Source: Stegostoma tigrinum
Taxonomy: Eukaryota
Assembly (NCBI RefSeq): GCF_030684315.1
Contig: NC_081379.1
Location: forward strand, 29,527,947 to 29,591,946
Length of the DNA: 64,000 nucleotides
Direction: 5' to 3'
Positions 2,245-63,737 of this stretch are shown one piece after another. Each line of letters starts with the position of its first letter. Position 1 is the stretch's first letter. The notes beneath the pieces are model-generated. The model saw nothing but the letters and a program-made list of their open reading frames with translations. It made no database searches and was not told the origin of the DNA. Made by a program: the position numbers and the translations under genes.

Positions 2245-2400
2245 AACATACAAATTAGGAACAGTATTAGGCCATTCAGCCTTACAAGCCCATTCCACTA
2301 TTCATTAAGACTATGACTGATCAATGTGTTCTAAATTTCACATTCGCATCTACCTCCAGTACCCTGTGATTGCCTCGCTTAAAAGAATCTTTTTCACCCA
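2245..2400 (-). mobile_element. CR1 3' UTR fragment
   Basis: aggaacagtattaggccattcagccttacaagccc resembles the reverse complement of the CR1 3' hairpin/tail seen in other copies (29765, 32345). Confidence 0.55.
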
Positions 2401-2419
2401 CAATGAACACTGAGAAATT

Positions 2420-2580
2420 TGTCAAACAGAACTCCCTTTCACATAGCGGTACCTACACCAGAAGGACTGCTGCAGTTCAAGAAAGCAGCTCGCTAATACT
2501 TTCTCAAGGGCAACTAGTGATGAACACCAAATGCTGTCCAGGTCAGCGATGCCTACTTCCCATGATTGGATTAAAAAGAA
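2420..2580 (+). mobile_element. 3' end of CR1/L2-group LINE (same family as 12365-13770)
   Basis: ggactgctgcagttcaagaaagcagctc...ctcaagggcaactag...aaatgctg matches 13665-13745. Confidence 0.6.
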
Positions 2581-12364: not shown

Positions 12365-13770
12365 CCAGAAGTAAAGTGAGAGTGACGGTCCTTGATGTCA
12401 AGGCTGCTTATGACCGAGTGTGGCAGCAAAGAGCCCTAGCAAAACTGGAATCAATGGGTACCGGGGCAAAAGTCCCATCTATTGGAATCGTATCAAGCAT
12501 ATAGGAGGATGGTTATGGTTGTTGAGGATGAGTTATCTCAGTTCCAGGACATCTCTGCACAATTCCTCAGCGTAGTGTCCTGGAATATTTTCACTGCTTC
12601 ATCAATGACCATCCCTCCATCATTACATCAAAACTGTGGATGTTCGCTGATGATTGCATAATGTTCAGCATCCTTTACAACTCTTCAGATACTGAACCTG
12701 TCCGTGCTCATATGCAACAAGATCTGGACGATACACGTGATTGGGCTGACAAGTGGCAAGTAACATTAGTACCACACAAATGCCAGGCAATGACCATCTC
12801 CAATTAGAGACAATCTAACTATTGCCTCTTGACATTCAATGGTGTTACTATCGTTGAATCACCCACTCGCAACATCCTGGGGGTTAAAATTGATCATAAA
12901 TTCAAGTAGGCTTACTCTGTAAACATAGGTTCCAGAAGAGTGTCTGTGTGAGTTTCCGCTGGGTACTCTGGTTTCCTCCCACAGTCCAAAGATGGGCAAT
13001 TTAGATGGATTGGACCTGCGAAATTAGCCATAGTATTCAGTGATGTGTAGGTTTGGGGCATTAGCCATGGGAAATGAAGGTTTATAGGGATAGGGTAGGG
13101 CAATAGGTCTGGGTGGGATGCTCTTCAGAGGGTCAGTGTGGATTTGTTGGGCCAATGGCTTTTTCCACACTATAGAGATTGTATGGAAAGGGCAGGTCAA
13201 AGGCTAGGAACATTCGGTGAGTAACTCACCTCCAGACTCCTCAAAACCTGACCACTGTCTACAAGGAACACATCAAGAGTGTGAAGGAATAGTCCCCGCT
13301 TACCTGGATGAGTGCAACTTCAACAACACTTAGGAAACTTGGCATCATGCAGGACATAGCATCCTGCTTGATAGGCACTATATCCACTCCTTCTAGTACT
13401 GACACTCATTAGCAGCAGTGTGTACTGTCTGCAAGATGCACTGCAGAAATTCACCAACAATCCTTAGACAATGCCTTTTAAACCCACAGCTACTTCCATC
13501 TAGAAGAACAAGGGCAGCAGACAATGGGAACACCACCCCCTCCAAGTTCCCCTTCACGCCATTCACCATCCTGACTTGGAAATATATCATCATTCCTTCA
13601 TTGTCGCTAGGTCAAAATTCTGGAATTCTGTCCCTAAGGGCACTGTGGCTCAACCTACAGCACGTGGACTATAGTGGTTTGAGGAATCAGCTCACCACCA
13701 CCTTCTCAAGAGCAACTAGATGGGAGCAATAAATGCTGGCCAGCCAGCATAGCCTACATCCCACGAGTGA
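12365..13770 (+). mobile_element. CR1/L2-group LINE, decayed RT domain plus 3' end
   Basis: Plus-strand translation gives VRVTVLDVKAAYDRVWQQRALAKLESMG, PQRSVL, MFADDC and WADKWQVTL. The 3' end is caataaatgctggccagcc...catcccacgagtgaattaaagaaa. Confidence 0.85.
12935..13185 (+). mobile_element. HE1-type shark SINE, 5'-truncated, nested in the LINE
   Basis: gggtactctggtttcctcccacagtccaaagatg...aaattagccatagt...tttccacactatagagattgtatg matches copies at 30748 and 38439 and interrupts the LINE RT region. Confidence 0.8.
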
Positions 13771-14560: not shown

Positions 14561-14885
14561 CTGGCCACCTTATATAGCTGGCTATGCCCTAATGGTGATG
14601 AAGTTTTGCAGCATATAACAGTCTACAGCAAATTGTGACACATGTTCTGCTGAATGCTTGAATGCTGCAACGCATAAGCACTTCAGTGATCTTCTCAATC
14701 TCATTTTATGTGGCGGCACTCCTTCGATTTTATGCGTGTTTGCCATGCGTTTATGCAATCTGTACTGAAGTCAAGAGCCACATGTTTAGTGATAATGGGA
14801 ACTGCAGATGCTGTAGAATCCAAGATAACAAAGTGTGGAGCTGGATGAACACAACAGGCCAAGCAGCATCTCAGGAGCACAAAAG

Positions 14886-14917
14886 CTGACGTTTCGGGCC
14901 TAGACCCTTCATCAGAG
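14886..14917 (-). ncRNA. Minimal type I hammerhead ribozyme motif (PLE pLTR)
   Basis: The reverse complement reads CU-CUGAUGA-A-GGGU-CUAG-GCCC-GAAA-CGUC-AG. The core boxes are intact and helix III is the palindromic ACGU. Confidence 0.75.
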
Positions 14918-15532
14918 AGGGGGATGGGGAGAGGGAGCTTGAATAAATAGGGAGAGAGGGGGAGGCAGACCGAAGATGGAGAGAAAACAAGATAGGTAGA
15001 GAGGAGAGTATAGGTGAGGAGGTAGGGAGGGGATAGCTCAGTCCAGGGAAGACGGACAGGTCAAGGAGGCGGGATGAGGTGGTAGGTAGGAAATGGAGGT
15101 GCGGCTTGAGGTGGGAGGAAGGGATGGGTGAGAGGAAGAGCAGGTTTGGGAAGCGGAGACAGGCTGGGCTGGTTTTGTGATGCAGTGGAGGAAGGGGACT
15201 GGAGGCTTGGGGTCTACATTGGGAAACCAAGCGGAGGCTTGGGGTCCGTTGTACCTGGTGTGGCTTCCTCTACATTGAGGAAACCAAGCAGAGGCTTGGG
15301 GACCGCTTTGCAGAACACCTCTGCTCGGTTCGCAACAAACAACTGCACCTCCCAGTCGCGAACCATTTTAACTCCCCCTCCCATTCCTCAGACGACATGT
15401 CCATCAAGGGCCTCCTGCAGTGCCACAATGATGCCACCCGAAGGTTGCAGGAACAGCAACTCATATTCCGCTTGGGAACCCTGCAGCCCAATGATATCAA
15501 TGTGGACTTCACAAGCTTCAAAATCTCCCCTT

Positions 15533-15640
15533 CCCCACTGCGTCCCAAAACCAGCCCAGCTCTTCCCTTCCCCCCACTGCATCACAAAACCAGCCCAGCT
15601 CGACCCCTCCCCCCACTGCATCCTCAAACCAGCCCAGCCT
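15533..15640 (+). repeat. Three imperfect ~38-bp tandem units inside the PLE 3' region
   Basis: ccccactgc(g/a)tc...aaaccagcccagc is repeated three times. Confidence 0.85.
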
Positions 15641-15884
15641 GTCTCCGCTTCCCTAACCTGTTCTTCCTCTCACCCATCCCTTCCTCCCACCTCAAGCTGC
15701 ACCTCCATTTCCTACCTACTAACCTCATCCCACCTCCTTGACCTGTCCGTCTTCCCTGGACTGACCTATCCCCTCCCTACCTCCTCACCTATACACTTCT
15801 CTCTACCCATCTTCTTTTCTCTCCATCTTCGGTCCGCCTCCCCCTCTCTCCCCATTTATTCCAGTTCCCTCTCCCCATCCCCCT

Positions 15885-15916
15885 CTCTGATGAAGGGTCT
15901 AGGCCCGAAACGTCAG
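15885..15916 (+). ncRNA. Minimal type I hammerhead ribozyme motif (PLE pLTR)
   Basis: ctctgatgaagggtctaggcccgaaacgtcag: CTGATGA at 15887-15893, GAAA at 15907-15910, GUC cleavage triplet at 15912-15914. Confidence 0.78.
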
Positions 15917-17689
15917 CTTTTGTGCTCCTGAGATGCTGCTTGGCCTGTTGTGTTCATCCAGCTCCACACTTTATTATCTTGGAAGCCACATGTTTAGTCT
16001 CTGTTTCCCGGCAAGTTTTTGCTTATTGCTCAAATGTAGCAGACACAGCAACCTTATGCAAAGTGTAGGCATCATGGCTCCTGCCAGGATAGCAGGCATT
16101 GAATCACATGCTCTGCTGTATAAGGTTGCAAGATGTTGAGGAAATGGAATATCCTTACATCTCAGAATTGACATGAGCCTGAAAAATGAAGGGCACACAC
16201 TGAATGATACCCTGTGCATGGGGTTCCTGTAATAAGTACACATGAAGCTGCATGCTACTGTGCCTTCTACAGCCTAAGCTGGAGTGAATTAAATGCATCC
16301 CTGTCTGGAACACAGGACCTCAATGACTTCCCTTATCCAACAATGGATGGCAAACTGGGAGATGTTGCAAATGTTTCAGTCCTGGTGCATTAAAGTACAT
16401 TGCCAGTGTTATGATCTCAAATGGTAAGTCATATTCCAGACAGAAAACTGGCTTGGCAGATCATATTTGGATTTATTTTGATTCTAATAGTGGCATCTCA
16501 CTAAAACATAAGCACATGATGCTGCAGATTTTGCTTTCACAATAAAATAGAAATTCATTTAACAAAAGAAATAAGGACAAAATAGAATAAATCAGACCAC
16601 CATCTTATAATAAAAATTCAAAGATTTCTCAATATGCAGTAAAAGTATAATCCCATTAATCTGAAAACACTCCTTCATAAATTGAAAGGCAAAAGTTAGC
16701 ATTTGTACAGTACTCAAAACGTATTTCCAGCACAGGACCCCAAATCACTGCCCAACAATACTCACGCTGGTGTCCCTGTATCAAAAACTTCAGTACAACT
16801 AAGTTATGTGTGACTTCAACCTTTAGACTGGAATTGTAGTTAACTTCAAACTGGAGCTATCATACTACTGAGCTTAAGTGTACTTAACTTTAAATAATCT
16901 CTTCAGGGTTTCATCCAAACACTCATGGTCTGAGACTAACTCTAAACTCTTCACTCTAATATAATCTAGCTCAGTATATACCCTTCCTTTCTTAGGAACA
17001 TTGGTCTATACAGCCATAGTCTTCCAAAGACTTCACAGGCCTGTTCAAAACTCAAGGTAAAACTGAAATCAATTATCTCTCCCCCTGTGCTATTAGTGTT
17101 TTCTCTAAGTTTAAAAGAGCCAAGTTCCAGATGTCTCGAACAAACCTTGTAAGTCCATTATTTGGCTTGCTGGGTCACTGAATGACCTAAGATAAAAAAA
17201 ATGTTAATGTGCACACTAACCCATTCACTCTAAAGACAGGCCTCAAAAATTGTTTTAAAAATAAATCATTGCAGCTACACAAATGCTTACAGTTATTTAA
17301 TTTCAAATACACAAAAAAACCCTACAGCTTACAACTGAAAAATCAAACTGAAGCTTGCAACAAATATATTTACTGTCTACATCACAGTACTCAACATGGC
17401 CACTAGTAATTGCATCTTCATCCTGCTCTGCGGCCATATTTATGGCTCTGGATGGTGAAAAATTTCAGTGAAAGTCATCTTAGTGCATCAGAGGTGTGTG
17501 ACACACTAAAATTCAGATGACAAATTGCTTCCTGAACACTGTGTGGCTATGACCTCCAGCAGAAAGCCTTTCTTTCTGTCCTGATCCTCTCTGTTCAACA
17601 GATATTCTTGATCAAAGCTACTTTGCCTCATTGTCTGTGTGCTGCTGTCATCCAAAGATAATGAACACCACAACAGAATCAGGGCTTAC

Positions 17690-27920: not shown

Positions 27921-29108
27921 AATGTCAGAGATCTGCTGAGATTGTGAGCTCTTCATCCAGCTATTGATATTCCTTCATCATTCTGCTGTCACCATGCCAA
28001 CTGCTCCCATTTCTGAAGCTGTCAGATATTTTTCAGAAGGTTAGGAGTTGTCTGGTTGCCATCCACTGCTATTATGGCAAGTAACGTGCAGTTGAATATT
28101 CTGATAAAACACATGACTAATTTGCCAGAACATATTTGCTTGCATCCTGAAGAGGGTAACAGTATCAAAAGGACCAGAAAAGCAATGATTCTATCACAGC
28201 TTATTTAATAATTCATTCTGTTATTAAATCCGAATTAAGTATGACGAAGCCCAGCAGATGACTCTTAATGGAAACACTGTTGTGACTAATTTTTACTTTA
28301 GCTACTTATCACTATTAGTGAAGAAATAGCCTTTATTTAGTGTGCCTATTGCTTTTAACATTAAGATAATCAAGAGTTGGTCGTTATTTGTAATGTAGTG
28401 TTACGCCCTTAAATTGGATGTTCCAGCGTCAGTTTTTCAAAAATTAAACTGTTATGGCTAAAGATGAAATTTACACACTTTTGGGTCTACAAATCATTGC
28501 ACAATCTTCTGTCAGTCAATGAATGCTAATATCACTGGTAAATTTGTAAGGGAGGTACTGTTGTTTAAGTCATGTAAGGATTTGAATTGTACTCATTATG
28601 GCTAAAATGACATGGCTGCAGATGTAGTCAAATTTTCACTTCTACCAGTGAAGTTCAGTTCCATTGTAATGTTGGATTAACTAGCTCCTCATGGTTACTT
28701 TCACTCATTCTGTCAATGAGGAGTATTTTGTAAATGTTACTTCCAGACCATGGTAATGTTCCTCAATTTGTTACAGTTTCAGCTGGGGTACATCAATTCA
28801 TTAAGCTTGCAGATACAGAAGGAAGAACTGGCTCTCCTTCATTATTCACCCAACTCCTTGCTAAGTTACAACAAAGTTAATTTTTAAATCGATCCCTTCA
28901 CTTGCGGATACGTTTCTCCTAGATTCAAATGAACTTGTTTTAAAAGGAACAAATTTAAACAGACTTTCTTGAAATAACAAAGAGTGATTCATTTATTAAT
29001 TACTAGAAGTGGGAAGAGTTTATAGTACAAGACACATATGCACAGAATAATATTAAGGAGGGGGTCCAACAAGGTAAAAGTGTAAAAATAAACACAGATA
29101 TATGGATC

Positions 29109-29479
29109 AGTGATACCAAGGTGTAGAGCTGGATGAACACAGTAGGCCAAGCAGCATCAGAAGAGCAGGAAAGCTGGTGTTTTGTGTCTGGACCCTTCAA
29201 GATGTAGGGGTCCAGACCCAAAACATTAGCTTTCCTGCTCCTCTGATGCTGTTTGGCCTTCTGCATTCATCAAGCTCTACACCTTGTTATCTCAGATTCT
29301 CTAGCATCGACAGTTCCTACTATCTCTGAATCAATTTTAATCCCACTGTGAAGCCAGAAGGGCCCAGACCCATAACATCAGCTTTCCTGCTCCTCTGATG
29401 CTGATTGGTCTGCTGTGTTTGTCCAGCTCTACACCTTGTTATCTCAGATTCTCCAGCATCAGCAATTCCAACTATCTCT
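29109..29479. mobile_element. Penelope-like pLTR cluster: one inverted plus two tandem copies
   Basis: A minus copy at ~29109-29198 is followed by plus copies at ~29207-29328 and ~29357-29479 (gacccaaaacattagctttcctgctcctctgatgctg...ttgttatctcagattctc). The hammerhead cores are truncated or decayed. Confidence 0.85.
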
Positions 29480-29764
29480 ATATAATCAGTCTCTGAGTTG
29501 TTGCTGAGGGTGGATATTTGAATATAGTGGTCATTGCAATGGAGGTTACTGGCGGTGCTGATGTTGGTCATTGCATAGTTGTTTTCATGATCCTTAGTTT
29601 TGTGGATTGGTAGAGATTTTGTTGCTCTGATTCCTTTCAGCTATGAATGATTACCAGTACTCAGGATGAGACAGAGTTCGCTTTGTCTGGTTTCCTTTAA
29701 CCTGACTGCTGACTAGCTAACTTTGAGCACTTGGAGTAAGAAATGGGGTTTATAAGCCCAAAAG

Positions 29765-30747: not shown

Positions 30748-31077
30748 GGGTGGCAGAACGACTCAGTGATTAGTACTGATGCCTCACAGCACCAGGGACC
30801 CGCGTTCAAATCCACAGTTGGGGCTCCTGTCTGTGTGGACTTTGTGTCTTTGTGGATTTCCACCCGGCACGCCAGTTTTCTCCCACAGACCAACAATGTG
30901 CAGGTTAGGTGGAGCGACCAAATTGTCACTGAATTGTCCCATAGTGTCCAGGGATGTGCGGGCTAGATGGATCAGCCATGCGCAATGCAGGGATGGGTAT
31001 GGTGGAATTCTCTTTGGAGGGTCAAAGTGGATTTGATGGGCCAAAAGGCCTGCTTCCAGGCTATAGAGATTCTATGA
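30748..31077 (+). mobile_element. HE1-type tRNA-derived SINE, near full length
   Basis: Pol III A-box-like gactcagtgattag and B-box-like gttcaaatcc. The 3' end aggcctgcttcc...gattctatga is CR1-derived. Confidence 0.85.
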
Positions 31078-34805: not shown

Positions 34806-35604
34806 TGTTTTTATTGCCTGGTATATTATCTTTTTAATCTGCCAAACTTTCATTGAAAATATTTTCCAAATGGTAATTCAATTTGGCAATTTTCCATTGT
34901 ATTTAGATATTTAATACGTTCAGTTAAATGTTCCTCACTAACATTTTCAAGTTATTGTTTGGAATTTATCCTATGCACAGATACCCTACCTTTTTGTTTG
35001 TGTTTTATTCAAATGCTGCTTTTGTTCAAATAGATATAGATTGACTTAGAGCAATGATTTATGATTGAGGGCTAAATTGGATATCCCCTGTGAACAGACG
35101 GAGGGATTGCAATGTGCAGTTAATATATATGTTTTCAGTGTAATGCAGGCAGTATGCCAACTTGAATGATTGCTGTGGGCAGCCAATGTTAACATTACTG
35201 TTCATTGTCTGTACACATCAACAGGAGCTCCGAATCCATAATTTGCTAGCATCAGTTACAGCTAACTTGTGCCTCATAAAGGGAAAGCGCATTGTGGTTG
35301 GAGCAGGAGCTTGCAGTCATACAAGAAGTAAATCCACTTTGGGAAATAGTGAAACCTGACATAATTTGCGGAAAGTGGTATCCAATGCTTTTAAATGCAG
35401 CATTGGAGGTCTGGAAGAGGGTGGAAAATAGATGGGAATTCCTATCCCTGCAGATGGTCAGAAGGCTCTCCAGACATGTGCTCGAAGTGCAGTGGTAGCA
35501 GATAGCAAATCAACCACGATAGCCTTAGCAGCCAAACAAATTGCACCACTCTCAGTTCATATTCTCTCTTAAAAAATGGTGGTATACTTCTGGAGTCAAT
35601 AGCA

Positions 35605-36195
35605 ATAAAAACAAAGTTGCTGGAAAAGCTCAGCAGGTCTGGCAGCATCTGTGAAGGAGAAAACAGGGATAACGTTTCATGTCTGGTGACCCTTCCTCAG
35701 AACTGGTGGTGGCTGGGAAAATGTCAGTTTATATTCAGGAAATAGGGAGGTGTGTGGGGTAGGGAGTAAACGATAGGATAGAGCCCAAAGAGAGAGAAAG
35801 GCAGTTGGACAGACAATGTTGCTAATGATCAGGCTGGGAGGTTGAATAGTTGTTAATGGGGGCTGTTAGTGACTAACAACAGGGGGTGTGTAATGGCAGG
35901 CTATGTGGTAACAAGGCCTGATGTGTGAGGTGGGGGCTGGGACGTGGGAGAGTTTAGGCCCTAAAATTATTGAACTCAGTACTGAGTCCAGAGGGCTGTA
36001 GGGTCCCCACATGGAAAATGAGGTGTTGTTCCTCCAACTTGTGTTGGTCTTCGCTGGAACACTACAGCAAGCCAGAGACAGAGATGTTGGCCAGGGAGCA
36101 GGGTGGTGCATTAAAGTGGCAGGAAACAGGTAGTTCAGGGTCTTTTTTGCAAGCAGAACGTAGATGTTCTGAGAAGCGGTTGCCATGTCTACACT
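35605..36195 (-). mobile_element. Penelope-like 3' fragment (GIY-YIG C-terminus plus pLTR)
   Basis: Minus strand encodes ...KLEEQHLIFHVGTLQPSGLS. The pLTR carries gtt-CTGAGGA-agggtcaccagacat-GAAA-cgtt at 35668-35703. Confidence 0.85.
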
Positions 36196-36635
36196 TCGAG
36201 TCAATAGGAGGCTCACTTGCTTTGTCCATCCCTGATGGTGTAGATGATGTTGGTCATCATTGAGGCATCTCCTGCTGTGGCTCTGTCCAGAAGTGGGGTT
36301 GGTACCAGTGAAAAATATGATATCTTCATAATTAATTCACCTTTTTGACATCAGCCCTCCACAAAATTGGAAAATGGGAATAGATCATCCATTGTCTTTC
36401 TAATTCCTACAACGATTTTTGTGCTAGGAAAAGTTGAGAATGATAATTCTGCTCAGATGCCATTAAACATTACTTAAGCGCTTTCTCCTACCATCTCTGG
36501 CATTCCACCAGCAGCAAACCAAAGTATGCTCCACCATGTGGGGATAATGCCCAATAAAATACGGCATTTTAAAAATATGGCCTCATCAACAAACCCCCAT
36601 CTGGTCACAGAGACTTGTCTGACCAATCTTTTTTT

Positions 36636-36965: not shown

Positions 36966-38438
36966 TACCTCATGCGCACTACCGCTCCATCTCAGCTTGA
37001 TGTCAATGCTACTCCTCTAGGCCGGCTGCAATCCCAGCAGTGACCACTATGGTGCTGCTGAGAGGCTAGAGTTACCAGCCCTCAGATCAGTCCGCAATGC
37101 CTCTCTCCAAAGAGAGAAAAGATGTAGAAGGCGTGCCGGATGGAAGCAGAATTGAGTTGTGGCTCCCTAAAGAGGCTGAGGTGGAGCTCTACAAACCCCC
37201 GCTAGATTCCTGACCTACTGTCTGGGCGTTGTAGCGAGCAGCGTTCAAAGGGACTTGTTCAAATGGAGCAGTTTATTGGGCTTGATGTGTTGCCCCCCAC
37301 CCCGACCCCGGTATTGGCTCCACAGAGCAAAAATAATCTGATATTCTCTCTCAGGTTCACACTAGTTGCCCTTGCATACTACTACTCTGTCAGTGCCCTT
37401 GCTGTTATTTATCAACAAACTAGCTCAGATTGCTGCCACCTATACCAAGATAGTGCACTCTGAGGCTGTGACTGTTGGCCCCTGAGCTGGTTGAGGCTGG
37501 TCGTCAAGGCCGTCTGCAGTCTCCTCCACTGAAGGGCAGCAGCGTTCCAGCAGCTCAGCAACCCGAGTAGCTCTGACAGGGAGCACTGGCAAATATCAGT
37601 TCCTGGTTTCCAATGCTTGAGTATTTTGCATGTGTACATGTGTTATTCGGAGAGTCATCAGTCTGATTTCCAGATATCCTTTGTCATCCAGTAGCCATCA
37701 TTTAGTTTGTTGTGAGGGCTCAAATGTAGCTGGCACTAAATGCCACAGAATTAAAGCACCATGATTGCTACCAAAATACCAGGCTTTGACCTAGTTGTAT
37801 GATTCATTTCTGCAGCCACACACCAGCTAGGCTTTCAGTGAGTGGAATCCGTTCTGGTTCCAGTGTATGATTGGGTTGAAAAACACAGCAGCATCTGCAA
37901 TTCTTTTGGTTTTTATGATTGGATTGACATGTGATGCCTGAAAAGTGAACGTGTGTGTGGTCATTGAAACTGCAACATGTGGAAGCCTGTAATCCTGACA
38001 AAGCTGTGTGCTCCATTTGTCGCTGGCAAGAAATGATGAAATGTACTTGGTGTCTTTTGAATAGAGAGCCTCAGTGACATTCCTTACACGACAGTGAACT
38101 GAAAATTGTGAATAGTTGCAAAGATCTCCACTTCCAACTCAGAAGAATTTAATTGCAAAAAAAAAATCTGTGGGCACCTTCATAACCTTTGGCAATGCCA
38201 TTCTGACTCTTCTCTCAGGAGATTGGTGAGGCAGCTGCAAGTGGCAGGTTTCATTGAACATGTTCTTACTGAAATGCGGATGTCTCATATGTCTCCCTGA
38301 ATATCTTGGATATCTATGACATTCTGTTAAGAAGTCTACTCCCATTTTTCTCCTCCTTCTTCGTGAAGCTTTGGTCTGCTTTGTCTGACCTCTGTTCATT
38401 CCCTAAGAAAGGGCAAAACTGGGAAAAAGTAACCATTA

Positions 38439-38748
38439 TCATAGAATCCCTACAGTGTGGAAACAGGCCCTTCAGCCCAACAAGCCCACACTGACACTCA
38501 GAGCATCCCATCCAGACCCACCCCCTATAATCCACCTAATCTATCTGAACACTACGGGCAATTTAGCATGGCCGATCCACCTAACCTGCACATCTTAGGA
38601 TTGTGAGAGGAAACCGGAGCAGCAGAGGAAAGCCATGCAGACACGGGGAGAAAACGCAAACTGCACACAGACAGTCACCCGAGAGTGGATTCAAACCCAA
38701 GTCCCTGGCGCTGTGAGGCAGCAGCGCTAACCACTGAGCCACCGTGCC
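38439..38748 (-). mobile_element. HE1-type SINE, full length
   Basis: Minus strand reads ggcacggtggctcagtggttagcgctgctgcctcacagcgccagggacttgggtttgaatcc (A and B boxes) through gggcctgtttccacactgtagggattctatga. Confidence 0.92.
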
Positions 38749-41074: not shown

Positions 41075-41325
41075 ACAGAATGATAGAACCCCTACAGTGT
41101 GGAAGCAGGCCATTTGGCCCATTGAGTCCACACTGACCCTCTGAAGAACATCCCATCCGGACCCATCCCCACCATATCCCTGTAACCTCACATATCCCAC
41201 GGCTATTCCACCCAGCCGGTACATCCTTGGATACTATGGGCAATTTAGCACGCCAATCCAACTAACCTGCACATCTTTGAACTGTGGTAGGAAACCAGAG
41301 CATCTGGAGGAGAATGTGCAAATTG
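41075..41325 (-). mobile_element. HE1-type SINE, 5'-truncated
   Basis: gatagaaccctacagtgtggaagcaggcc...taacctgcacatctttg matches 38439-38650. Confidence 0.85.
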
Positions 41326-41349
41326 ATTAGAGATGCCCAAAATGGCTCC

Positions 41350-41990
41350 AAGCCTCGGTTTGGCCTCACCGATGTTCAGGAGGCCACACCAGGAGCAACC
41401 AATACAGTAGACTAACTTGACGGATGTACAGCTGAACCTCTGTCTGATATGAAAGGTTTATTTTGAGCCTTGAATGGAAGTGAGGTGCATGGGCAGGTGT
41501 AGCACTTCCTGTAGTTGCAGGGAAAGGTGCCGGGCGTGGTATGATTGGTGGGGAGTGTGGAGCAGATGAGGGAGTCGCAGATAGAGCAGTCCCTATGGAA
41601 AGCAGATAAGGGTGGGGAGGGAAATATATCCTCGTTTGTGGGGTCGGATTGTAAGTGGCGGAAGTGGTGGAGAATGATTTGCTGGATGTGGATGTTGGTG
41701 GGGTGATATGTGAGGACCAGGGGGATTCTCACTTTGTGGGAGGGGATGCGAGGGTAGAAGTGTGGGAATTGCAAGAGATGCAGTTGAGGGTATTTCCGTG
41801 GTGGGGAGGTTACGGTCTTCGAAATACGAGGACACCTGGGATGTTCGGGAGTGGAACACCCCATCTTGAGAGCAGATGCGGCAGAAGCGGAGGAATTGGG
41901 AGTAGGGGATTGCATTCTTGCAGGAAGGCGGGTGAGAGGACGTTAGTCCAGGTAGCTGTGGGAATTGATGGGCGTGAAATAGATGGCTGG
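41350..41990 (-). mobile_element. Inverted Penelope-like arm (RT thumb to GIY-YIG)
   Basis: Minus strand encodes KNAIPYSQFLRFCRICSQDGVFH and YCIGCSWCGLLNIGEAK. It is homologous to ~43445-44190 (+). Confidence 0.9.
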
Positions 41991-42150
41991 AATTTACCTG
42001 TAAATTCACCTGGAAAACACCTTTCACTCCAAGCTCAAATTAACCTGGAAGCTTCACTGTATCAGTGCTGCCTCACGTTCCCATGAGGAGCTTGAACAAG
42101 TCATCGACTTGACTAACACCTTTCACCCCAAACTCAAATTCACCTGGACC

Positions 42151-44730
42151 CAAACTCTGCCATGTCTTCACCATCCCCCTAGGCCTTCCCCTCACTGAGG
42201 ATGAACTGTCAACCCTCAGTAAAGGACTCAACTTCATTCCCCTCTGCCAACACATCAATGAATTCCGTTCACACTTGGACTTCAAACTCTTTTTCCACTT
42301 CCTCTGCCTCCGCACCGATTTCTCTAACCGCAACTCTGTCCCACACTCTGCTGATCCCTTCTCCCACCTCCAGCACACCCCCACCTTCTGAACACCACCC
42401 CATGGCCTCCTACCCTCCTTCAACCTCTTCATTTCCAATTGCAGTCTCAGCATTGCTCGCCTCAATCTCTCCACCCCCTCACTCACTCCAACCTCTCCCC
42501 CAGGAATGCACCACCCACTCTTCCCTCTGCTCCAACCCTAACCTCACTGTCAAACTTGCGGACAAGGGTGGCACAGTTGTAGTATGCCACACTGACCTTT
42601 ACATCACTGATGCCAGGTGCCAACTCTCTGACACCTCCTCCTACCGCCCCCTCAATTATGACCTTACCCCTGATCACCAAACCATTGTCTCTCAGACCAT
42701 CCATAATCTCATCACCTCAGGGACTTCCCAACTATCCACAGCCTTCAACCTCTTCGTTCCCCATCCCCACACCACCCATCTCCAACTCCTTTTCAAAATC
42801 CACTAACATGCCTGGCCCGGCCAACACATTGTCTCTGTCTGCTCCTGACCTCGGAACTTACCTCCGCTTACCTTGACTCTATTTTCTCACCCCGGTCCAG
42901 GAATTCCCCACTTATGTCCAGGACACCACCCACACCCTCCACCTCCTCCAAGACTTCCAGTTCCCTGGTCCCAACACCACATCTTCACAATAGACATCCA
43001 GTCCCTATACTCTTGTATCCCCCATGCGGATGGTCTAAAAGCCCTCCACTTCTTCATTTCCCACAGGGCCAACTAATCCCCCTCCACCACCATCCTCATC
43101 CGCTTAACAGAACTTGTCCTTATCCCGAACGACTTCTCCTCTAACTCCTTCCAGCTCCTACAAACTAAGCGAGTGGCCGTGGGCACCTGTATGGGTCCAA
43201 GCTCTGCCTGCCTCTTCTTAGGATACGTGGAACAGTCCCTTTCCTGCTGCTACATTGGGACTAACCCCACCTCCATTTTTGCCACATTGATGACTGTATC
43301 GGCTCATGCTCACATGAGGAGATTGAACGGTTCATCAACTTTACTAACACCTTTCATCCCAACCTCAAATTCACCTGGACCACCTCCAATACCTCCCTCC
43401 CCTTCCTGGACCTCTCCGTCTCCGTCTATGGTGACTGCCTCAAACTGAAATCTATTGCTGGGTGTGAGGGGCTGTTGCGGGGGGTGGGGGGTGGGTGGCG
43501 ATGCAAGATGTGCAACAGGTTTTTGGGGAATAGGGGAGTAAAGAGAAGGCCACCTATTTCCGCAGCTACCTAGACTACATCTCCTCTCTCCCAACTTCCT
43601 GCAAGAATGTGATTTCCCCCTAGTCCTAATTCCTCTTCCTCCACGCATCTGCTCCCAAGATGAGGCATTCCGCTCTCCAACATCCCAGATGTCCTTCTAT
43701 TTCAAGGACCGTAACTTTCCCCCTCCAGTGATCGAAAATGCCCTCAGCTACATCTCTTGCTTCTCCTGCACTTCTGCCCTCACTTCCCTCCTGCCAATGA
43801 AAATAAAGTCAGAATCCCCCTTGCCTTATATATTACCCCACCAACCTCGGCATCCAATGTATCATTTTCCGTCACTTCCACCACCTACAATCTGACCCTA
43901 CAACCAAAGAGATGTTTCCCTCCCCATCCTTATCAGTCTTTCGTAGGGACCGCTCTCTCTATGACTCCCTTGTCTGCTCCAAACTCCCCACTAACCCCAC
44001 CATCTTTGGCACCTTTCCCTGCAACCACTGGAAATGCTACACCTGCCCCTACACCTCCCCCCTCACAACCATCCGAGGCCCAAAATAAACCTTTCATATC
44101 AGACAGGGGTTCGCCTGTGCATCTGCCAACTTGGTCTACTGTATCTGCTGCTCCCAATGTGGCCTCCTCTCCATCTTGGTGAGACAAAGCATAGACTCAG
44201 AGACCATTTCAAAGAGCATCAGTGCTCTGTTTGCGACAAATGACAACCCCTTCCGGTTGCCAACCATTTTAAGGCCCCCACCCACTCCCTGATTGACATG
44301 CCCATTCTGAGCCTTCTCCAGTGTCACAATGACACCAGCCACAAACTGGAGGAGCAGCACCTCATATTCCACCTCAGGAGCCTACAGCCCAATGGCCTAA
44401 ACATGGATTTCACCAGTTTTAAAATCTTCCCACCCCTGGCATCATCTCATGTCCAACCCTTCCTCTTATCCCCGCCTCCTTGACCTGACACAACCTGTTT
44501 ATCTTCTCTCCCACCTATTTGCCCCACCAATCCCACTGACCAATCCCCACTACTCCCTACCTGCACTCACCTATCACAATCCCACCTGCTTTCCCCTGCC
44601 CCATCCCTTCCCACTCTCTCGTTATTTCCCTTCCCACTCCCCGTCTCTGAAGAAGGGTCCTGACCCGAAACATCAACTTTCCTGCTCCTCTGATGCTGCC
44701 TGCCCTGCTGTGGTCCACCAGCTCCACACT
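42151..44730 (+). mobile_element. Penelope-like retroelement, near-complete decayed ORF (RT plus GIY-YIG) and pLTR
   Basis: LTEDELSTLSKGLNFIP, VKLADKGGTVVV, IDIQSLYSCIPH, VAVGTCMGPSSACLFLGYVE, HIDDCI, LVYCICCSQCG, GETKHRLRDHFKEH, KLEEQHLIFHL, then the pLTR. Many frameshifts. Confidence 0.93.
44645..44676 (+). ncRNA. Hammerhead-like motif in PLE pLTR (probably decayed)
   Basis: ct-CTGAAGA-a-gggtc-ct-gaccc-GAAA-catc. The core is intact, but the helix III palindrome is broken (ACAT instead of ACGT). Confidence 0.6.
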
Positions 44731-45829
44731 TCAAAAGTATTTTATTGGTTGCAAAGTGTTCTGTGACTTCCTAATGTCATGAAGATAGCAAAATAGATAT
44801 AAATCTTTCGTTTTCTCTAGAAATGTTGTATGTCTGCAGAGGGCAGTACTTTTTTTTAATTTCTCAAGGGAATACTTGTTCGCTAGAATTGTAAATTAAT
44901 TCTTTGAACGTCTCCTATGTTTATCTTTAATCTAACTTCCCAATTTTAATGCCTAGAGCTTTCAAAAACATCCAAAAGTCTGAAGTACTAGGACCCCAGG
45001 ACATGCCATAGAGAGAAAACTCAAAGTGCAAACAAAATAGCTCAGAAATAGACCGAACATTTTCCACTTCATGAACGTGTTGAGCTCTTAAAATTTATTT
45101 CCCTATAAGCTGGGTATCTAGTGACTGTTGGTAATCTGTATACAAGGGCATAACGGACAATGTGCACTTGTATGTTTGAATGTCGGCAAATCAGGTACAA
45201 ATCTAAATGGTGTTTGCTGAGTTTAATTTAAATGTTGCTATAAAACTCTCACTTATTTAAAGCAGAACATTATGTTTTAGAAGACAGGTAAATGTGGGAA
45301 TAAACAGATTGCAAACTCAGCAGCAATCTGCCAGAGCAATCATCTGCTCAATTTTTTATCACGTTGCAGCCCACATGGAGTGTAAACAGTCTTGCCACCA
45401 GCCCTATTGCTTCCTAAATCATTTCAAATGCTTTCAACTTTACTGTATGTAAGAATCTCTTTTAAATTACTGGCGCAGTGCTGGGTGTGAGGGGCTGTTG
45501 CGGGGGGCAGGGGGTGGGTGGTGATGCAAGATGTGCTACAGGTTTTTGGGGAATAGGTGAGTAAAGAGAAGGACAGAAAGCAATCTGCTATCATTCCCAA
45601 AAGAAATAAAGTAACCAAGGAAAAATGTGTGATTATTGCAGAAAAAATATTTTATCTTATAGTCACAAAATACAGTCAAATATAACGAAGTGCTGAGCTG
45701 TTGGAACCCCAGAGATCTCCTTGCAGTTTCCCTCCAGGTATGGAACTTCTATTTGGAAACCTGTGGTTTCGTCAAAGTTAAGGTACAAGAAATTAAACTG
45801 ACAAATTTTTTTAATAGCAAAATTCCACC

Positions 45830-49516: not shown

Positions 49517-51635
49517 CATAGAACATTACAGCACAGTACAGGCCCTTTGGCCCTCGATGTTGTGCGACCTGTCATACCAATCTGAAGCCCATCTAACCTA
49601 CACTATTCCATGTACGTCCATATGCTTATCCAATGACGACTTAAATATACCTAAAGTTGGCGAATCTACTACAGTTGCAGGCAAAGCGTTCCATTCCCTT
49701 ACTACTCTCTGTGTAAACTACCTCTGACATCTGTCCTATATCTTTCACCCCTCAATTTAAAGCTATGCCCCCTCGTGCTCGCCGTCACCATCCTAGGAAA
49801 AAGGCTCTTCCTATCCACCCTATCTAACCCTCTGATTATTGTACATGTCTCAATTAAGTCACCTCTCAACCTTCTTCTCTCTAACGAAAACAGCCTCAAA
49901 TCCCTCAGCCTTTCCTTGTAAGACCTTCCCTCCATACCAGGCAACACCCTAGTAAATCTCCTCTGCACCTTTTCCAAAGCTTCCGCATCCTTCTTATAAT
50001 GCGGTGACCAGAACTGTATGCAATACTCCAAGTATGGCTGCACTAGAGTTTTGTACAGCTTCACCATAATCTCTTGGTTCCAGAACTCGATCCCTCTATT
50101 AATAAAAGCTAAAACACTGTATGCCTTCTTAACAGCCCTGTCAACCTGGGTGGCAACTTTCAAGGATCTGTGTATATGGACACCAAGATCTCTCTGCTCA
50201 TCTACACTACCAAGAATCTTACCATTAGCCCTGTACTTTGCCTTCCGGTTACTCCTACCAAAGTGTATCACCTCATACTTGTCCACATTAAACTCCATTT
50301 GCCACCTCTCAGCCCAGCTCTGCAGCTTATCTTGTCTCTCTGCAGCCTACAGCATCCTTCGTCACTATCCACAACTTCACCGACCTTAGTGTCGTCTGCA
50401 AATTTACTAACCCATCCTTCTACGCCCTCATCCAGGTCATTTATAAAAATGACAAACAGCAGTGGACCCAACACGGACCCTTGCGGTACACCACTAGTAA
50501 CTGGTCTCCAGGATGAACATTTCCCATCAACTACCACCCTCTGTCTTCTTTCAGCAAGCCAATTTCCGATCCAAACTGCTATATCTCCCACAATCCCATT
50601 CCTCTGCATTTTATCAGGCAGGGAGGAAGCTGTAGAGCGTGGGAGCCTACTGTGGGGAACCTTATCGAACGCCTTGCTGAAATCCATATACACCACATCA
50701 ACCGGTTTACTCTCATCTACCTGTTTGGTCACCTTCTCAAAGAACTCAATAAGGTTTGTGAGGCACGACTTTCCCTTCATAAAACCGTACTGACTATCCC
50801 GAAACAATTTATTCTTTTCTAGATGATTATAAATCCTATCCCTTATAACCTTTTCCAACACTTTACCAACAACTGAGGTAAGGCTCACTGGCCTATAATT
50901 ACCAGGGTTGTCTCTACTCCCCTTCTTGAACAGAGGAACCACATTTGCTATCCTCCAGTCGTCTGGCACTATTCCTGTAGACAATGACGTGTTAAAGATC
51001 AATGCCAAAGGCTCGGCAATCTCCTCCCTGGCTTCCCTGAGGATCCGAGGATAAATCCCATCTGGCCCAGCGGACTTATCTATCTTCACACTCTGTAGGA
51101 TTTCTAATACCTCTTCCTTGTGAACCTCAATCCCACCTAGTCTAGTAGCCTGTATCTCAGTATTCTCCTCGACAACATTGTCATTTTCTAGATTGAATAC
51201 TGTCGAAAAATATTCATTTAGTGCTTCCCCTATCTCCTCTGACTCCACACACAACTTCCCACTACTCTCCTTGATTGGTCCTAATCTTACTTTCGTCATT
51301 CTTTTATTCCTTAAATACCTATAGAAAGCCTTAGGGTTTACCCTGATCCTATCCGCCAACAACTTCTCATGTCTCCTCCTGGCTCTTCTGACTCTCTCTT
51401 TAGGTTTTTCCTGGCTACCTCGTAGCCCTCAAGTGCCCTAACTGAGCCTTCACATCTCATCCTAACATAAGCCTTCTTCTTCCTCTTGACCAGAGATTCC
51501 ACTTCCTTCGTAAACCACGGCTCCCACGCTCTACAGCTTCCTCCCTGCCTGACAGGTACGTACTTATCTAGGACACACAGGAGCTTTTCCTTGAATAGGC
51601 TCCACATTTCTGATGTGCCCATCCCCTACAGTTTC
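49517..51635 (-). mobile_element. Young 5'-truncated CR1 LINE (ORF2 RT domain plus 3' UTR)
   Basis: ORFs 51338-51622, 50268-51362 and 49702-50298 are frameshifted pieces of ORF2: [57 protein letters not shown]. The 3' hairpin gggccaaagggcc and tail gttctatg are present. The endonuclease domain is absent. Confidence 0.97.
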
Positions 51636-53299: not shown

Positions 53300-53690
53300 T
53301 GATGGGGGGGATCTTGACCGGGGAAGTCTGAGGGGATGGTGGGGTGGGGGGAAATAGGTCTCTGCAAGAGAGTTGCAGAAGAATTTCCAGCCTCGTTTGA
53401 AGTGGGGTGAGTGGGGAGAAGGAAACTGCAAGAAGTGTGAGGGGGAGGCTGTAAGAAGAGGCTGGGGGAGAATGGGGTTGCAGTATGAGTGTGGAGAGAG
53501 AGAAGGGGTCTGCAAAAGGTGTAAGAAGAAGAAGGTGGCTGCAAGGGTTGGGGGAAAGAAAGCTCAAGAGTAGTGTCGGGTGAGAGGGACTCAAGGAGGT
53601 ACCAAATAGAAGCAGGAGGCTGCAAGAAGGTTTGCTGAGGTAAACGTCTGTGAGAGAAATGTGGGTGTTGGGGAGAAGGGGGAGAGATTT
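53300..53690. repeat. Purine/G-rich low-complexity tract with decayed internal repeats
   Basis: Recurring ggctgcaagaag / gtctgcaa / ggggagaa units. Confidence 0.6.
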
Positions 53691-58640: not shown

Positions 58641-60600
58641 TGTTCATTTCATATGAATCCACTGTGTTTTTAACCCACACGCAATGAAAAATAGCTAGGA
58701 TTTAGAATCATTCTGGGCTTAGGCTGAGATCCGTACAAGGATCTGTATACCCATGATCTGAGAGAGAACTTTGACTGTGGAGTGAAATTTGCGTCGGTCA
58801 AGATTCAAGACTGCTTCAACCTGGAAATAACTTGAGTGCAAGCTCAAACAGGATGACTCACTAGAAGTCTACAAGAAATAAAAAGCAAATTTACTTTCAA
58901 AAAGCATTAGATTTTTGCTGGCTGCTGATCCAGGATCAGGGATCACAAACTGCTGGGCAACCAGGATCTGAGGACAGTTGTCATTCTTCAGTGTGGTATA
59001 TAATCACTAGTAATAAGGGTGTAAATAGTTTACATGCAGCCTAATCAGCAACTATTATTAAGACCACCAAATTTCAATTTTAAATTGAACCTGAATGGAG
59101 ATCCAGGCGATGCAACAATTAGAATATTGGACAAACAAATGTGATTGGGCAGGCTTCTATTAATAGACATGAATGGATGTTCAATATCAATTGACAGGAC
59201 ATTACAGCTGTGATTTTCCATTAAAATGTTTGCTGCATGTAAAACCCTGATACTTGTGTGGGCTTTGAATAAAATTCAATCCATTAAATGTCCATCTGCT
59301 GACATCTTCACTAGTTATTTCAGTGCTACAATTCTATTACTTCTGACCTTTCAGCTTCCGGACATTTTTTGTGAAGCAATATGAATTCTTCCACTGCAAG
59401 AATGACCCACCTGGGTGTTTCTGATGTAACATCATCCCTCTCTCTACACTTCACTGCAGCACAATCCATTCTGTTATGCTGCTCTTTGTATCAATGCTAT
59501 ACCATGCTTGTATTCTGAGCAAAATGCCAAGGTATCGACAGGGAACTTTTCTAAGGCTACAATCGGAGCCAAACACAAGCGTAGAATTGGTTTATATTGT
59601 GGTTCTGTCCTGGAGATCATATGGCAATGACTCTCACTATGTGTGAATAGGAGCTTTCTCAAGGCTATTGTTTGTTTCTGTTTCTCAGCTCCATAACCAC
59701 ATGCTTGACCAACAGCAGACAACACAGTGAGCAGTTATCAATCCCACATAATCAAACAATGAACAAACGAGCACAACATTTCCTCCTGTTGTAAAACTAA
59801 AGAACCTTATTATAAATTAAGCTATCATAAACAACAAAAACATGAACATTGAGGTCTATTTCTTACAGTTCAGAGGATACCCATGTTCTCTAAATCCTGA
59901 AATACATTTGGAAGTATGAAAGTCCCTCGTGACAGATCTGGGGTCTCTGAACTTGACGTCAGGATGCAGCCTGATCATCTCAATGATGGGGTGATTAACA
60001 TTGCATTTGCTCATCTGAAAAGGAAGTACATCAGACTGGAAAATACTGGTCCATTTGCTAGTTAGCTTCTTGCATTCCATTTTGTGCTATTTTCAAACAG
60101 GTATGTGTTGGTACCAAGTATTGTTTCCAAGTACTGTTTAACTTGTTTTGTTTTTGGTGTTTGTGATGTGAGTATTCTGTTGCATTCTGACCATTTGTCA
60201 TGAACACAATCTCCGATTTCAAATCATAGTTTCCTTGTACACATCCATTTGTATGCCTTTACTTTATATTGTTACTTTGTGATTTTTTTTTCTGTTTATA
60301 TTTTAACCTTTATCATTGTGAAGTGCTATAGTCTTCAAAATCAGTGGCAGGATAACTTATGACCCGTTATAAGTTTGACCTACATCTATCTGGTCAGAGG
60401 ATGTAGGAAGGATCGATATGTCTGAGGTCAGATATGGATGGATTGTTCGAATGTCGTTTTCACCATTTTGCTTGCTCTCAGACTGTCCGAGATCACCTTT
60501 TTGAATCAGTCGTTGCTACCATTCGATTGGTCACAATGTCAGATGGTGATGAACCTTGTAGTTTGGTTGGAATCCGTGAACTGACTGGAAATAGAATGCA

Positions 60601-60785
60601 AGATAACGAAATGTGAGGCTGGATGAACACAGCAGGCCCAGCAGCATCTCAGGAGCACAAAAGCTGACGTTTCAGGCCTAGACCCTTCATCAGAGAGTGT
60701 CCTGAGATGCTGCTGGGCCTGCTGTGTTCATCCAGCCTCACATTTCATTATCTTGGATTCTCCAGCATCTGCAGTTCCCATTATC
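60601..60785. mobile_element. 185-bp palindromic mini Penelope-like insertion with 17-bp TSD
   Basis: The TSD actggaaatagaatgca is at 60584-60600 and 60786-60802. Arms 60599-60654 and 60700-60755 are near-perfect reverse complements. The 3' tail is gattctccagcatctgcagttcccattatc. Confidence 0.93.
60664..60695 (-). ncRNA. Minimal hammerhead ribozyme motif in the hairpin loop
   Basis: The reverse complement ctctgatgaagggtctaggcctgaaacgtcag differs by one base from 15885-15916. Confidence 0.7.
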
Positions 60786-63737
60786 ACTGGAAATAGAATG
60801 CAGATCATTATCAGTCTTGATAGTCTGTAGCAACCTCCATTTAGTTTAGAATATCAATGACTAAGTGGTCCTAATGAAATATACCGTAGTTATTTTAGCC
60901 TCTGTATGTCATGATCAAGAAACAAAAATAATTGATTTGTAAGGGCTGCTTGCACTGTCAGTTGTTAGCATGATATTGTTTACCACTGGGTCCACTGGAG
61001 AGATGTAAGACATTTTTAGTGACTGTAGAGGCAGCACGTTATCTGATGAACTCTTGTGTGGATCGATCTATTGCTGGCCACCAGACACCTTCACAGAATT
61101 GTTCTTCCACCTTGACAGCACCTGGATGGCCTCCATAGGCAAGATGCATCACTGTCTGCAGTAATCCTTTTGGGGTAATTGCCCTAGTTCTACACGCATC
61201 ATATTTGTCATCAGGCAATGCAACTCATTGTGACTGTTCCTTCCCCTACTTCATGATGCCACTCATTTTTTTGTAGTCTGCAGAAAATTAGCCTGTACCT
61301 ATCTTTCACTGATTCTGCCTTCAATTCTCACATTACTCAATGGCATGAGCCATTGAGATACTCAATCTTGAACTTGTTCTCAGTAAAACATTCTGACCAT
61401 TTATAGATGTGCATAGGTCACTGACTGATTCTGAACCAGTTAACAATGTAGTCAGCAGTTTATGATCACACAGAAAATACATTTTCTCCCACAGAGGTAC
61501 ATGTGCCAACGTTCACAAGCTCTGATGCAGCTATTCACTTCGTTCTATGTACAGTGAGCGTACTGTTGCAATTCCAGTTTCTAATTAATTTATGACGATA
61601 CATGTTTCTACAAGTGGTTTGAAACATGTGGGGACTGCTGGAGATTCTGGCTTTGTCTTTACTATGTCAAATGCTGTTCGCTGTGTAATTGTAATCTTTA
61701 CACAGCAGGCTTTGGAAGAGATTCACAATCTCTGCATCCTTAGGAATACATCTGTGATAAAAAAAAAATGATCGCACAGACGAATGATGCCAACACTACC
61801 ACGTTGGGTGGGGTCAAAAGTATACAAATAACAATTATGTTATCTTCAGGCTATACTACAGCTGCTGTCACTTTGGACAGAATCTTACAGGTGTCTGAAC
61901 AATGTGGGTATGATGAGGTCTGTAGCTGAATTGGACAAGATGCCTAGCATGGCTGATCCTGACATCAGTAAGACCTCACCGTGTCTTTTATGCCTTTCAC
62001 AGTTGGTGGGATGAGTTTCTTAAATGGCAAAGGTGAGATTGCTTGTTAAAGGCCTGTTGACAGAGCAACTCACTTCATTAATATTCAGCTTTCTGTCTTA
62101 CCAATCTCAGTAAGCAAACTGGGCATTGAGAAATCTCAGCAAGGAAGTCTGAGTATGTACCAGGTGTTTTCAGTTCATTGCTTCCAACAAACTTCATATT
62201 GCAAACCCTTTCAGACCCCATTCTATGGGCACTGGTCACATGCGCCCCTTGTCCATGGACATTGGCATCTGACATGTGCAAACTGCGAAGAATCCTCATG
62301 ACACATCTCAAATCCACACACAAGATGCTACTGCACTTCAATGTTGCATCTGCAACTCTCATTGTAATGTTGACACGAGGACAACTACACTCAGGGATAT
62401 GCACCCAGCTCACGGAAAGAAGGAGGAGCTTTCCTCATTGTCTTAGCACTCACTTACTTTGATTTTACCTGGGTGCTCATGGTATTCATGCTGTGGCTTG
62501 CTATTTTATCCTTTTCCTCCTCAACCTAAGATGTAACGCTCATATTACTCCGTCCTCACCTTGCTATTTAGCACAGATACAGAGGGAGGAAACTTGTTGT
62601 GGTTGTCAGCAGGCCTCAGTCAAATTGAGACGGTTAAGCTTTGGTCAGGGAGTCCCGGTGTAGTAAGCCGCTGATACCAGTCCATGGGCTTGGACAAAGT
62701 CAGTCAGCCACATGGGGTGGTCAGAGTTAGGTCCTGCTCGTTTAAAGGGGTAAGAAGATAATTGTTGGTCAACCCAGCAACCACCTTGACTCTTTCTGCC
62801 CTCTTACATGCTGCATTCCTCCTGGAATGAGAGACGGTCAGGTATTCAGGGAGATGAAAATGGACGGTGTGATCATGCAAATGCAGGCCCAAAATTGGAC
62901 ATTCTAAATTGACCCAAGTCAGAGAGATCAGGCCTGACAGAAAATTGGTTGAACCCACTTAAACAACACCTAGCAGCTTTTAGCTACAGAGAACAGCAGA
63001 AACCGAGGTCGAAGAGGTCACAAATGTTCGGAGGACCGAATTACAACCAGCCACAGGGTTGTGCATTGGAGAAGTGGTGATCAGACTTTCTAGCACCTTG
63101 ATTTCCAGCCAGTACCTGAGCATATGTACTTTACACCTCCTCAGCATGGCAAGGGTGTTGGTGTAATTCCGTTGGATGCCTTGAACCCCGCTCATAGCCC
63201 CATTGGGCAAAGACCGCAGGACATTCAGGAAGGTCTGGGGTGAGGGGGATAAAAATACACACCTTGGAAGACACTCCCTCAGCAAAGACTCTCAGCGAAG
63301 ATCCAGGCAGAACACAATATGACTACACAAAAACACCAAGGAGAAGATTCATCCTGACCTGCCAGACCCACTTTCTTGGAATAGTGCCAACCCAACATTG
63401 GAGAAGTAGGAGAATTGAATGGCCAGTACAAACATGGATCATTGTGGATAATATCCTTTCTCAGGTGGAAAGAGTTAGAGTATAAATAGTGAAAATTTGA
63501 GAAATGCTCACATGGTTTTCTTAATAAGAATAGTTTTATTGATTAAAAAGAAGTTGAACTACAAACCAAATCCTGTGCCCCTTTGTTCACCTCATTGACA
63601 AGAGTGGTTGAGTAAAATGTTTATAATACATAAACTGGTATTGATCTGTGATCAAAATGGTTGACACGTTTATGTATAAAGCAACTGTCATTCGATCATA
63701 AACAGAAGCATTTTGTGTGAAGCACAATGAGAAATTT

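Follow-up and report, generated by a model that had tools for sequence, protein, structure and literature searches.

What happened at a junction where a retroelement meets an inverted copy of itself, and where several short copies of one element segment stand in between? The question is raised by a locus near 42 kb in the stretch of shark DNA analysed here (64 kb in all, and referred to below as the window), at which pieces of reverse transcriptase (RT) sequence are lined up between the inverted arm and the main body of a Penelope-like element (PLE). In the accessible sections of two papers, both the completion of PLE insertion and the formation of inverted junctions are called undefined (PMC11167929, PMC8557442). 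A preliminary description of the locus proposed that the polymerase had engaged one template site several times, in a manner resembling the repeat addition of telomerase.

The Penelope-like element and the array at its inversion junction

The main body of the 42-kb element (42149–44732, plus strand) is a 5'-truncated, decayed PLE with RT and GIY-YIG coding regions and a 3' terminal repeat region, as recognised by tblastn with two proteins, P0001 and P0006. It aligns colinearly to P0001 (E 2e-125), the shark proteins being annotated from whale shark and zebra shark, and this colinearity with an RT plus GIY-YIG protein bears out the Penelope-like identity assigned in the preliminary description. 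In P0001, Pfam recognises a C-terminal GIY-YIG domain above the cut-off, and the match to RVT_1 stays below threshold. None of four broken frames of the window itself gave a relevant Pfam match, and a sequence search with P0001 against solved structures found no RT. The 3' end of the body is common to other copies, and its terminal repeat contains a hammerhead-like core (44647–44670, plus strand). By motif scan and folding, such a core with stem II occurs four times, always in PLE ends; Rfam returned nothing at gathering thresholds and no hammerhead family at E values up to 10. The family is very abundant in these genomes, with 2,397–4,559 contigs per run matching 481 bases. A search for paralogues together with their flanks gave no match to the 3'-end pattern in metagenome and viral contigs, and none of 71 metagenome stretches returned by an alignment query was confirmed.

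Beside the 5' end of the body lies the inverted arm (41315–41985, minus strand), a 5'-truncated copy of about 43449–44238, of which 41971–41315 matches 43550–44238 at 79%. Its inner end corresponds to approximately body base 43449; at its outer end the element's last ~500 nt are missing and no target-site duplication (TSD) is visible. A SINE-like repeat (41080–41302), with related copies near 12940–13185, 30762–31077 and 38438–38738, adjoins this outer end. Inside the body, 43456–43552 is a 97-nt direct copy (94%) of 45479–45575, some 2 kb downstream. It is younger than the element and sits about 7 nt inside the start of the arm homology, that is, at the foot of a possible arm/body stem, and it may mark breakage at the base of a hairpin.

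Between arm and body, five pieces of 5, 11, 12, 34 and 93 nt tile 41987–42148 in a right-justified alignment, all on the plus strand. All five end on body base 43379, and their length grows strictly toward the body; after the longest, 1231 nt of body follow before the same base is reached again. The normal place of the repeated segment is 43293–43379 (plus strand), within the RT, from just inside the YIDD-equivalent motif to a 'KFTW' stretch. Nearest the arm, and preceded by a 1-nt filler at 41986, is P0 (41987–41991), a 5/5 copy of 43375–43379 and the weakest piece; it is placed outside the arm because paralogous contigs of the arm diverge from the window behind 41984–41985. There follow P1 (41992–42002; 11 nt, 9/11 identical to 43369–43379) and P2 (42003–42014; 12 nt, 12/12 identical to 43368–43379), a 1-nt filler at 42015, and P3 (42016–42049; 34 nt, 30/34 identical to 43346–43379). 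A 6-nt filler (42050–42055) separates P3 from P4; together with the next 3 nt it matches 43337–43345, just upstream of the P3 start, at 7/9 positions, a resemblance that is weak and was noticed post hoc. P4 (42056–42148; 93 nt) copies 43293–43379 with 75/87 aligned columns identical and one 6-nt gap, retaining 6 nt that are missing from the body. The two bases at 42149–42150 are common to both and can be read either as the end of P4 or as the start of the body. With the end fixed and local composition taken into account, the chance of a match is 4e-8 for P2, 1e-4 for P1 and 3e-4 for P0.

Four of these pieces had been noted in the preliminary description as copies of 43293–43381, and local alignment recovers them where they were placed (identities 77/89, 30/34, 13/13 and 9/10). 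The claim that they share one end and rise in length also stands, with two refinements: the common end is 43379, and the fifth piece, of 5 nt, had been missed. In assembled contigs, paralogues align from 42147–42150 onward, and the consensuses of loose ends fall at 42056 and 42150. Among the contigs listed (assembled contigs at 80% likeness, from 4 of 17 runs), one that bridges the array was found in 0/4 runs, a hole that is uninformative if contigs were filtered or fragmented. Similarly, the bin 41996–42012 was uncovered in all four runs, including two that contained 0.65–0.67 of the locus words, against 0.11 in a second organism, and fragmented contigs could explain this. The hole therefore counts neither for an artefact nor for an array unique to this locus. 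Apparent joints to the opposite strand in the contig mapping were rejected: they come from paralogues of the ordinary, colinear kind, which match P4 first and the arm next.

A second array and the extent of the pattern in the window

The same signature, as had been pointed out before, recurs at 15201–15301 in an independent insertion. Here the inverted arm (14791–15199, minus strand) is followed by a 1-nt filler at 15200, by Q1 (15201–15212, plus strand; 12 nt, 11/12 identical to 15290–15301, p about 3e-7) and by Q2 (15213–15244, plus strand; 32 nt, a copy of 15269–15301 with one substitution and one gap). The body (15245–15983, plus strand) comprises the end of the GIY-YIG ORF and the 3' region. 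The common end point is 15301, which lies 57 nt from the body start, so that the series reads 12, 32, 57. A 6-bp hairpin has its foot at this end point, and the start of each piece coincides with a predicted hairpin loop or adjoins one (15250–15370; fold z −2.7); the 42-kb end point has no notable RNA structure (fold z −0.72). In the 3' region of the 15-kb element there is also a 39-nt tandem of ~2.7–3 copies (15533–15649), inside which the arm ends.

A 15-nt TSD read from the sequence (left copy 14776–14790, plus strand; right copy 15984–15998) encloses the 15-kb insertion, and the arm carries a 28-nt 'tail' (14791–14818) that is not present on the 3' end of the body. Since this tail lies inside the TSD and the body end lacks it, the arm was primed separately and is not a fold-back of the body; a fold-back origin is ruled out for this copy. 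The 60-kb copy likewise has a one-ended tail (about 31 nt) and a TSD (17 nt), the tails of the two copies being on opposite sides. According to the available part of one study, purified lizard PLE protein, a predicted dimer, cuts both strands and extends them from a pair of start sites between which the tail lies (PMC11167929). In the 42-kb copy neither tail nor TSD is visible, and separate priming of its arm is carried over by analogy because the outer end has been lost.

Both strands of the window were scanned for two adjacent pieces that share an end with a third place, gaps being allowed, with 120 block dinucleotide shuffles as the null. The two arrays scored 38 and 37 and the shuffle maximum was 22; the 39-mer tandem near the 3' end of the 15-kb element, whose units are equal in length, scored 42. 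Nested arrays of unequal length above the shuffle maximum are only these two in 64 kb, and both are at PLE inversion junctions. A further candidate (53435–53629, score 22) was rejected, as it equals the null maximum and is a G-rich degenerate stretch. An inverted 5'-truncated copy beside the 5' end is found at 29 kb and 60 kb as well as at 15 kb and 42 kb, so that an array is present at two of the four PLE inversion junctions in the window. No weight is given to a Fisher comparison of 2/4 with 0/10 (p 0.07), whose denominator was an assumed figure. The junctions at 29 kb and 60 kb have none, the latter (60584–60802) being a clean inversion, with its tail on the right-hand copy, that serves as a negative example. 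The sample is thus two arrays, one of which was selected for the feature.

Other observations in the window concern related sites. At 29102–29480, a short PLE unit combines an inverted arm with two copies of the terminal repeat in sense orientation; on its 3' side the upstream copy is ~27 nt longer than the last one, and the hammerhead-like core is close to the break in each of the three parts. A more distantly related GIY-YIG PLE family (47% to P0001) is represented at 35595–36202 (minus strand) by a 5'-truncated copy, in which neither an inverted arm nor stutter was seen. At a non-Penelope site, inside a CR1-type RT reading frame, 50614–50647 is a 34-nt perfect inverted copy of 51519–51552.

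All seven pieces are co-terminal within their own array (5/5 and 2/2), and the size order is strictly monotonic in both; the chance of this is 1/240 for all pieces, or ~1/24 if the 5-mer is dropped and a tie between 11 and 12 is allowed. The end point falls in the RT coding region at 42 kb (43379) and in the GIY-YIG coding region at 15 kb (15301), and lies ~70 nt and ~300 nt, respectively, upstream of the arm stop point. Overlap at the 42-kb junctions amounts to 1, 1, 0, 0 and 2 nt, and both 15-kb values are 0 nt, the junctions into the two bodies being scored on their right-hand side only. Fillers (1, 1, 6 and 1 nt) occur at four of nine junctions, both arm junctions counted. There is possibly a terminal-base preference at the piece starts, in that the first base on the plus strand is T at three 15-kb junctions (15200, 15213, 15245) and A for P1–P4 (41992–42056), numbers that are too small to weigh. 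At 42 kb a 7-nt stretch complementary to the nascent end lies 32 nt inside the arm, and 24 of 1270 body positions have such a complement; there is none at 15 kb, and snap-back of the nascent end onto the arm was therefore rejected as a general stop signal.

At 42 kb, pieces and body differ at 18/144 sites (12.5%), compared with 129/625 (20.6%) for the arm. For P3 and P4 taken together (16/121) the difference from the arm has p 0.06, or p 0.31 without CpG-type sites, and a similarity equal to that of P4 is seen in 3% of the arm's 87-column windows. P4 and the body share none of nine amino-acid departures from the shark homologue consensus, and in the P4 region the body is ancestral at all four listed differences from the family majority (33 further table rows being not displayed). 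At 15 kb, the pieces differ at 2/44 sites and the arms at 23/386 (6.0%). With a divergence similar to that of the arm, the pieces would date roughly from the insertion, and judged by their sequence the arrays are about as old as the insertions that contain them, with a somewhat later origin possible at 42 kb. Copies that have diverged in this way also argue against an assembly duplicate.

Possible origins of the arrays

The anatomy of the array, its common end, its size order, its scarce microhomology and its approximate age are matters of observation; it is its origin that has to be argued. We tentatively favour serial end-to-end jumps of the element's own RT onto one free RNA 3' end, the 5' side of this RNA shrinking meanwhile. 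Enzyme, template and direction are all putative, and the reading is a plausible one that stops somewhat short of being probable. The array would then be the scar of the insertion reaction itself. Before the cDNA ends were joined, the end of the body cDNA would have been extended repeatedly by jumps onto a free RNA 3' end that lay at base 43379 (15301 in the other copy), slightly upstream of the point at which the arm cDNA stopped. Followed along the first-strand cDNA, the body would have been copied, the RT would have returned to one base, runs of 93, 34, 12, 11 and 5 nt would have been made in that order of synthesis, and the arm would have been joined, host end joining presumably sealing the last piece to it. 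The shrinking of the runs, the weakest step, may be understood because the RNA fragment would lose part of its 5' side in each round.

The fixed start, the almost complete lack of pairing and the untemplated fillers favour end-to-end jumps, being consistent with them but not exclusive to them. The position of both significant arrays at PLE inversion junctions also counts for this reading, as do the separate priming of the 15-kb arm, which matches the lizard PLE biochemistry, and the finding that P4 and the body share no departures, the body bases being ancestral. Against it, by our own reasoning, reuse of the same 3' end requires that a 93-nt RNA:DNA hybrid first come apart without loss of that end, and nicking of the hybrid should give several 3' ends and not one. 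Microhomology is symmetrical, so that overlaps of 1–2 nt fit the opposite direction, and synthesis by Pol theta, equally well. Local structure, in the form of the 15-kb hairpin and the 7-nt complement at 42 kb, offers other causes. The slightly greater closeness of the pieces than of the arm to the body, which would allow a later origin, counts against serial jumping too, and so does the absence of arrays at 29 kb and 60 kb in a sample of only two cases.

It is possible, although rather unlikely, that the pieces are instead products of aborted second-strand priming, in which the end of the arm cDNA finds a priming site on the body cDNA just upstream of a block at 43379 and is extended only as far as that block. 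The obstacle would be RNA still hybridised or a bound protein; the synthesis would be the work of either the PLE RT or a gap-filling polymerase of the host. Because the product covers the template, each priming would fall further upstream (5, 11, 12, 34, 93 and finally 1231 nt), and only the last would pass the block. Such a scheme accounts for the strict size order without any decay of the template; it also suits the confinement of all pieces to the extent of the body, the continuation of the 15-kb series by the body start, and the resemblance of the 6-nt filler to the stretch abutting the P3 start. In the available part of one report, moreover, the R2 RT positions the second-strand primer poorly, and this is also where it jumps (PMC13000458). 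A primer must pair in order to start internally on single-stranded DNA, however, and at the junction of Q1 and Q2 there is no pairing (a G4 end faces a pyrimidine-rich upstream stretch), as is also the case at two of the 42-kb junctions; nor is there a known reason for a block at base 43379. A host origin of a more general kind, namely templated insertion of the Pol theta type, either when the cDNA ends were joined or at a later break in the hairpin-prone arm/body junction, we consider unlikely by a clear measure. Cycles of primer–template switching with 1-nt priming are established in the accessible text of PMC5068794 and PMC4912351. The window holds two single-piece local templated insertions (43456–43552 and 50614–50647), so that such repair operates in this lineage; the pieces are perhaps slightly younger than the arm (p 0.06), and host-dependent extra nucleotides are described, in the part of PMC4245944 available, as common at fish LINE 5' junctions. 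Yet the mapped inserts in Caenorhabditis elegans came mostly from within 20 bp of the junction (PMC5068794, in the sections seen). The 15-kb template is roughly within the flank of the junction (the first 57 nt of the body), whereas at 42 kb the distance from the body start to the template end is 1231 nt, and the orientation of the template is wrong for it to be the arm end. If synthesis cycled on the opposite end, the pieces should, we infer, share a start with the flank and not an internal end. Outside the PLE junctions, no array in the 64 kb rises above the null, and both of the other templated insertions are of a single piece.

The remaining explanations are far less credible. It would be very surprising if an assembly or sequencing artefact had produced the arrays: inverted repeats do trouble PLE assemblies (PMC8557442, in the portion available), but the copies differ from one another and from the body through substitutions at scattered positions and an indel of 6 nt, their divergence being close to that of the arm, and the divergence of the arrays scales with the age of the element (12.5% against 20.6% at 42 kb; 2/44 against 6.0% at 15 kb). 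Ordinary tandem duplications and deletions of later date can scarcely be entertained. P0–P2 on their own do resemble a 12-nt tandem of 2.6 copies, and P3 and P4 both differ from the body at one shared position (with different bases), but the suffix copies stand before the long piece, which is itself 1.2 kb from its source, and several deletions exactly at unit boundaries, without microhomology, would be needed twice in 64 kb. Equally hard to credit is true repeat addition of the telomerase type by the PLE RT, with realignment on a defined template region, in view of two different end points inside coding sequence, unequal units and no alignment region.

Relation to telomerase and to known template switching

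Repeat addition by telomerase depends on a dedicated template, a uniform unit and an alignment region. The arrays resemble it in that one template position would be reused by a related RT, and differ from it in having none of these three. The preliminary description was right that simple slippage does not account for the anatomy of the array, and repeated re-engagement of one template point is still the simplest way of describing it; what does not hold is the framing as repeat addition. The restart point is in the RT region in one element and in the GIY-YIG region in the other, the units range from 5 to 93 nt, and the junctions share 0–2 nt, from which it follows that there is no fixed template or alignment region. 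The signature is not evidence of telomerase-like activity.

There are closer parallels elsewhere. As far as the accessible sections go, the RTs of group II introns, L1 and R2 enter at an acceptor 3' end with 0–1 bp of pairing, make non-templated additions and jump serially (PMC8363836, PMC10830420, PMC11371274), so that the behaviour is not special to relatives of telomerase. Entry at a 3' end, 0–1 bp, untemplated fillers and concatemers are common to that work and to the arrays. In the parts of those papers available, template jumping was shown in vitro with an excess of templates of equal length, whereas the present case is a genomic inference with shrinking units and a putative PLE RT. The elements themselves agree with head-to-head PLE units already described (PMC3846280, PMC8557442, PMC11167929, each in part): they have an RT with a C-terminal GIY-YIG, an inverted 5'-truncated copy beside the body, a tail at one end only (30–40 nt in the known units), a TSD and a candidate hammerhead-like core. 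The junctions reported in those portions of the same papers include palindromes, overlaps and partial tandems, but no series of internal fragments graded in length and finishing at a single base.

Among genomic precedents, the closest one found comes from L1 and is called 'twin priming and 3' switching': as described in the available part of the preprint, synthesis at the inversion junction jumps back once to a position lying downstream on the RNA (bioRxiv 10.1101/2024.08.27.596794). Common to both is a non-inverted, distant piece of the element at the inversion breakpoint, for which the explanation given for L1 is a shift of the cDNA end to a different site on the RNA. About 3,600 L1 insertions yielded 3 such cases there, each with one jump, whereas in the present arrays two to five jumps would return to the same base; and what is inverted in L1 is an upstream segment, while it is the 3' end that the PLE arm repeats. 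Switching by Pol theta (PMC5068794, PMC4912351, both in their accessible portions) shares repeated abortive synthesis, 1-nt priming and a mixture of templated and untemplated bases. Its templates are usually within about 20 bp, while that of the array is up to 1.2 kb away, gives a 93-nt piece and is co-terminal in the body. No description of graded co-terminal arrays at PLE junctions was found in the titles, abstract openings and available passages of the papers listed by full-text searches, few of them subscription papers or older work on Penelope and LINE junctions, and all of them taken without supplements, where such sequences could well be shown; nor does such a pattern appear in the available parts of PMC11702581, PMC9977147 and bioRxiv 10.64898/2026.07.22.740005.

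The array is thus a real, twice-seen junction signature of Penelope-like insertions and a variant of known template-switching chemistry, working like serial template jumping or like abortive priming, both of which are known processes. As two fossils the finding is modest; it becomes more telling since the family is abundant and the rival explanations make distinct, countable predictions. These concern the end point relative to the arm end, the size order, the microhomology, and whether or not there are pieces that extend past the body's 5' end. With an abundant family, and an array at two of four junctions, a survey of one genome could therefore separate RT jumping from host repair. If the process were generic repair, the arrays would be only a tidy example of something already known. 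That graded co-terminal arrays are frequent and Penelope-specific in shark genomes, and record a PLE RT that held one RNA 3' end and copied it again in vivo, is in our estimate unlikely. If true, it would mean a crude reuse of template, with untemplated boundaries, in the closest retroelement relatives of telomerase, which could be read from thousands of fossil junctions.
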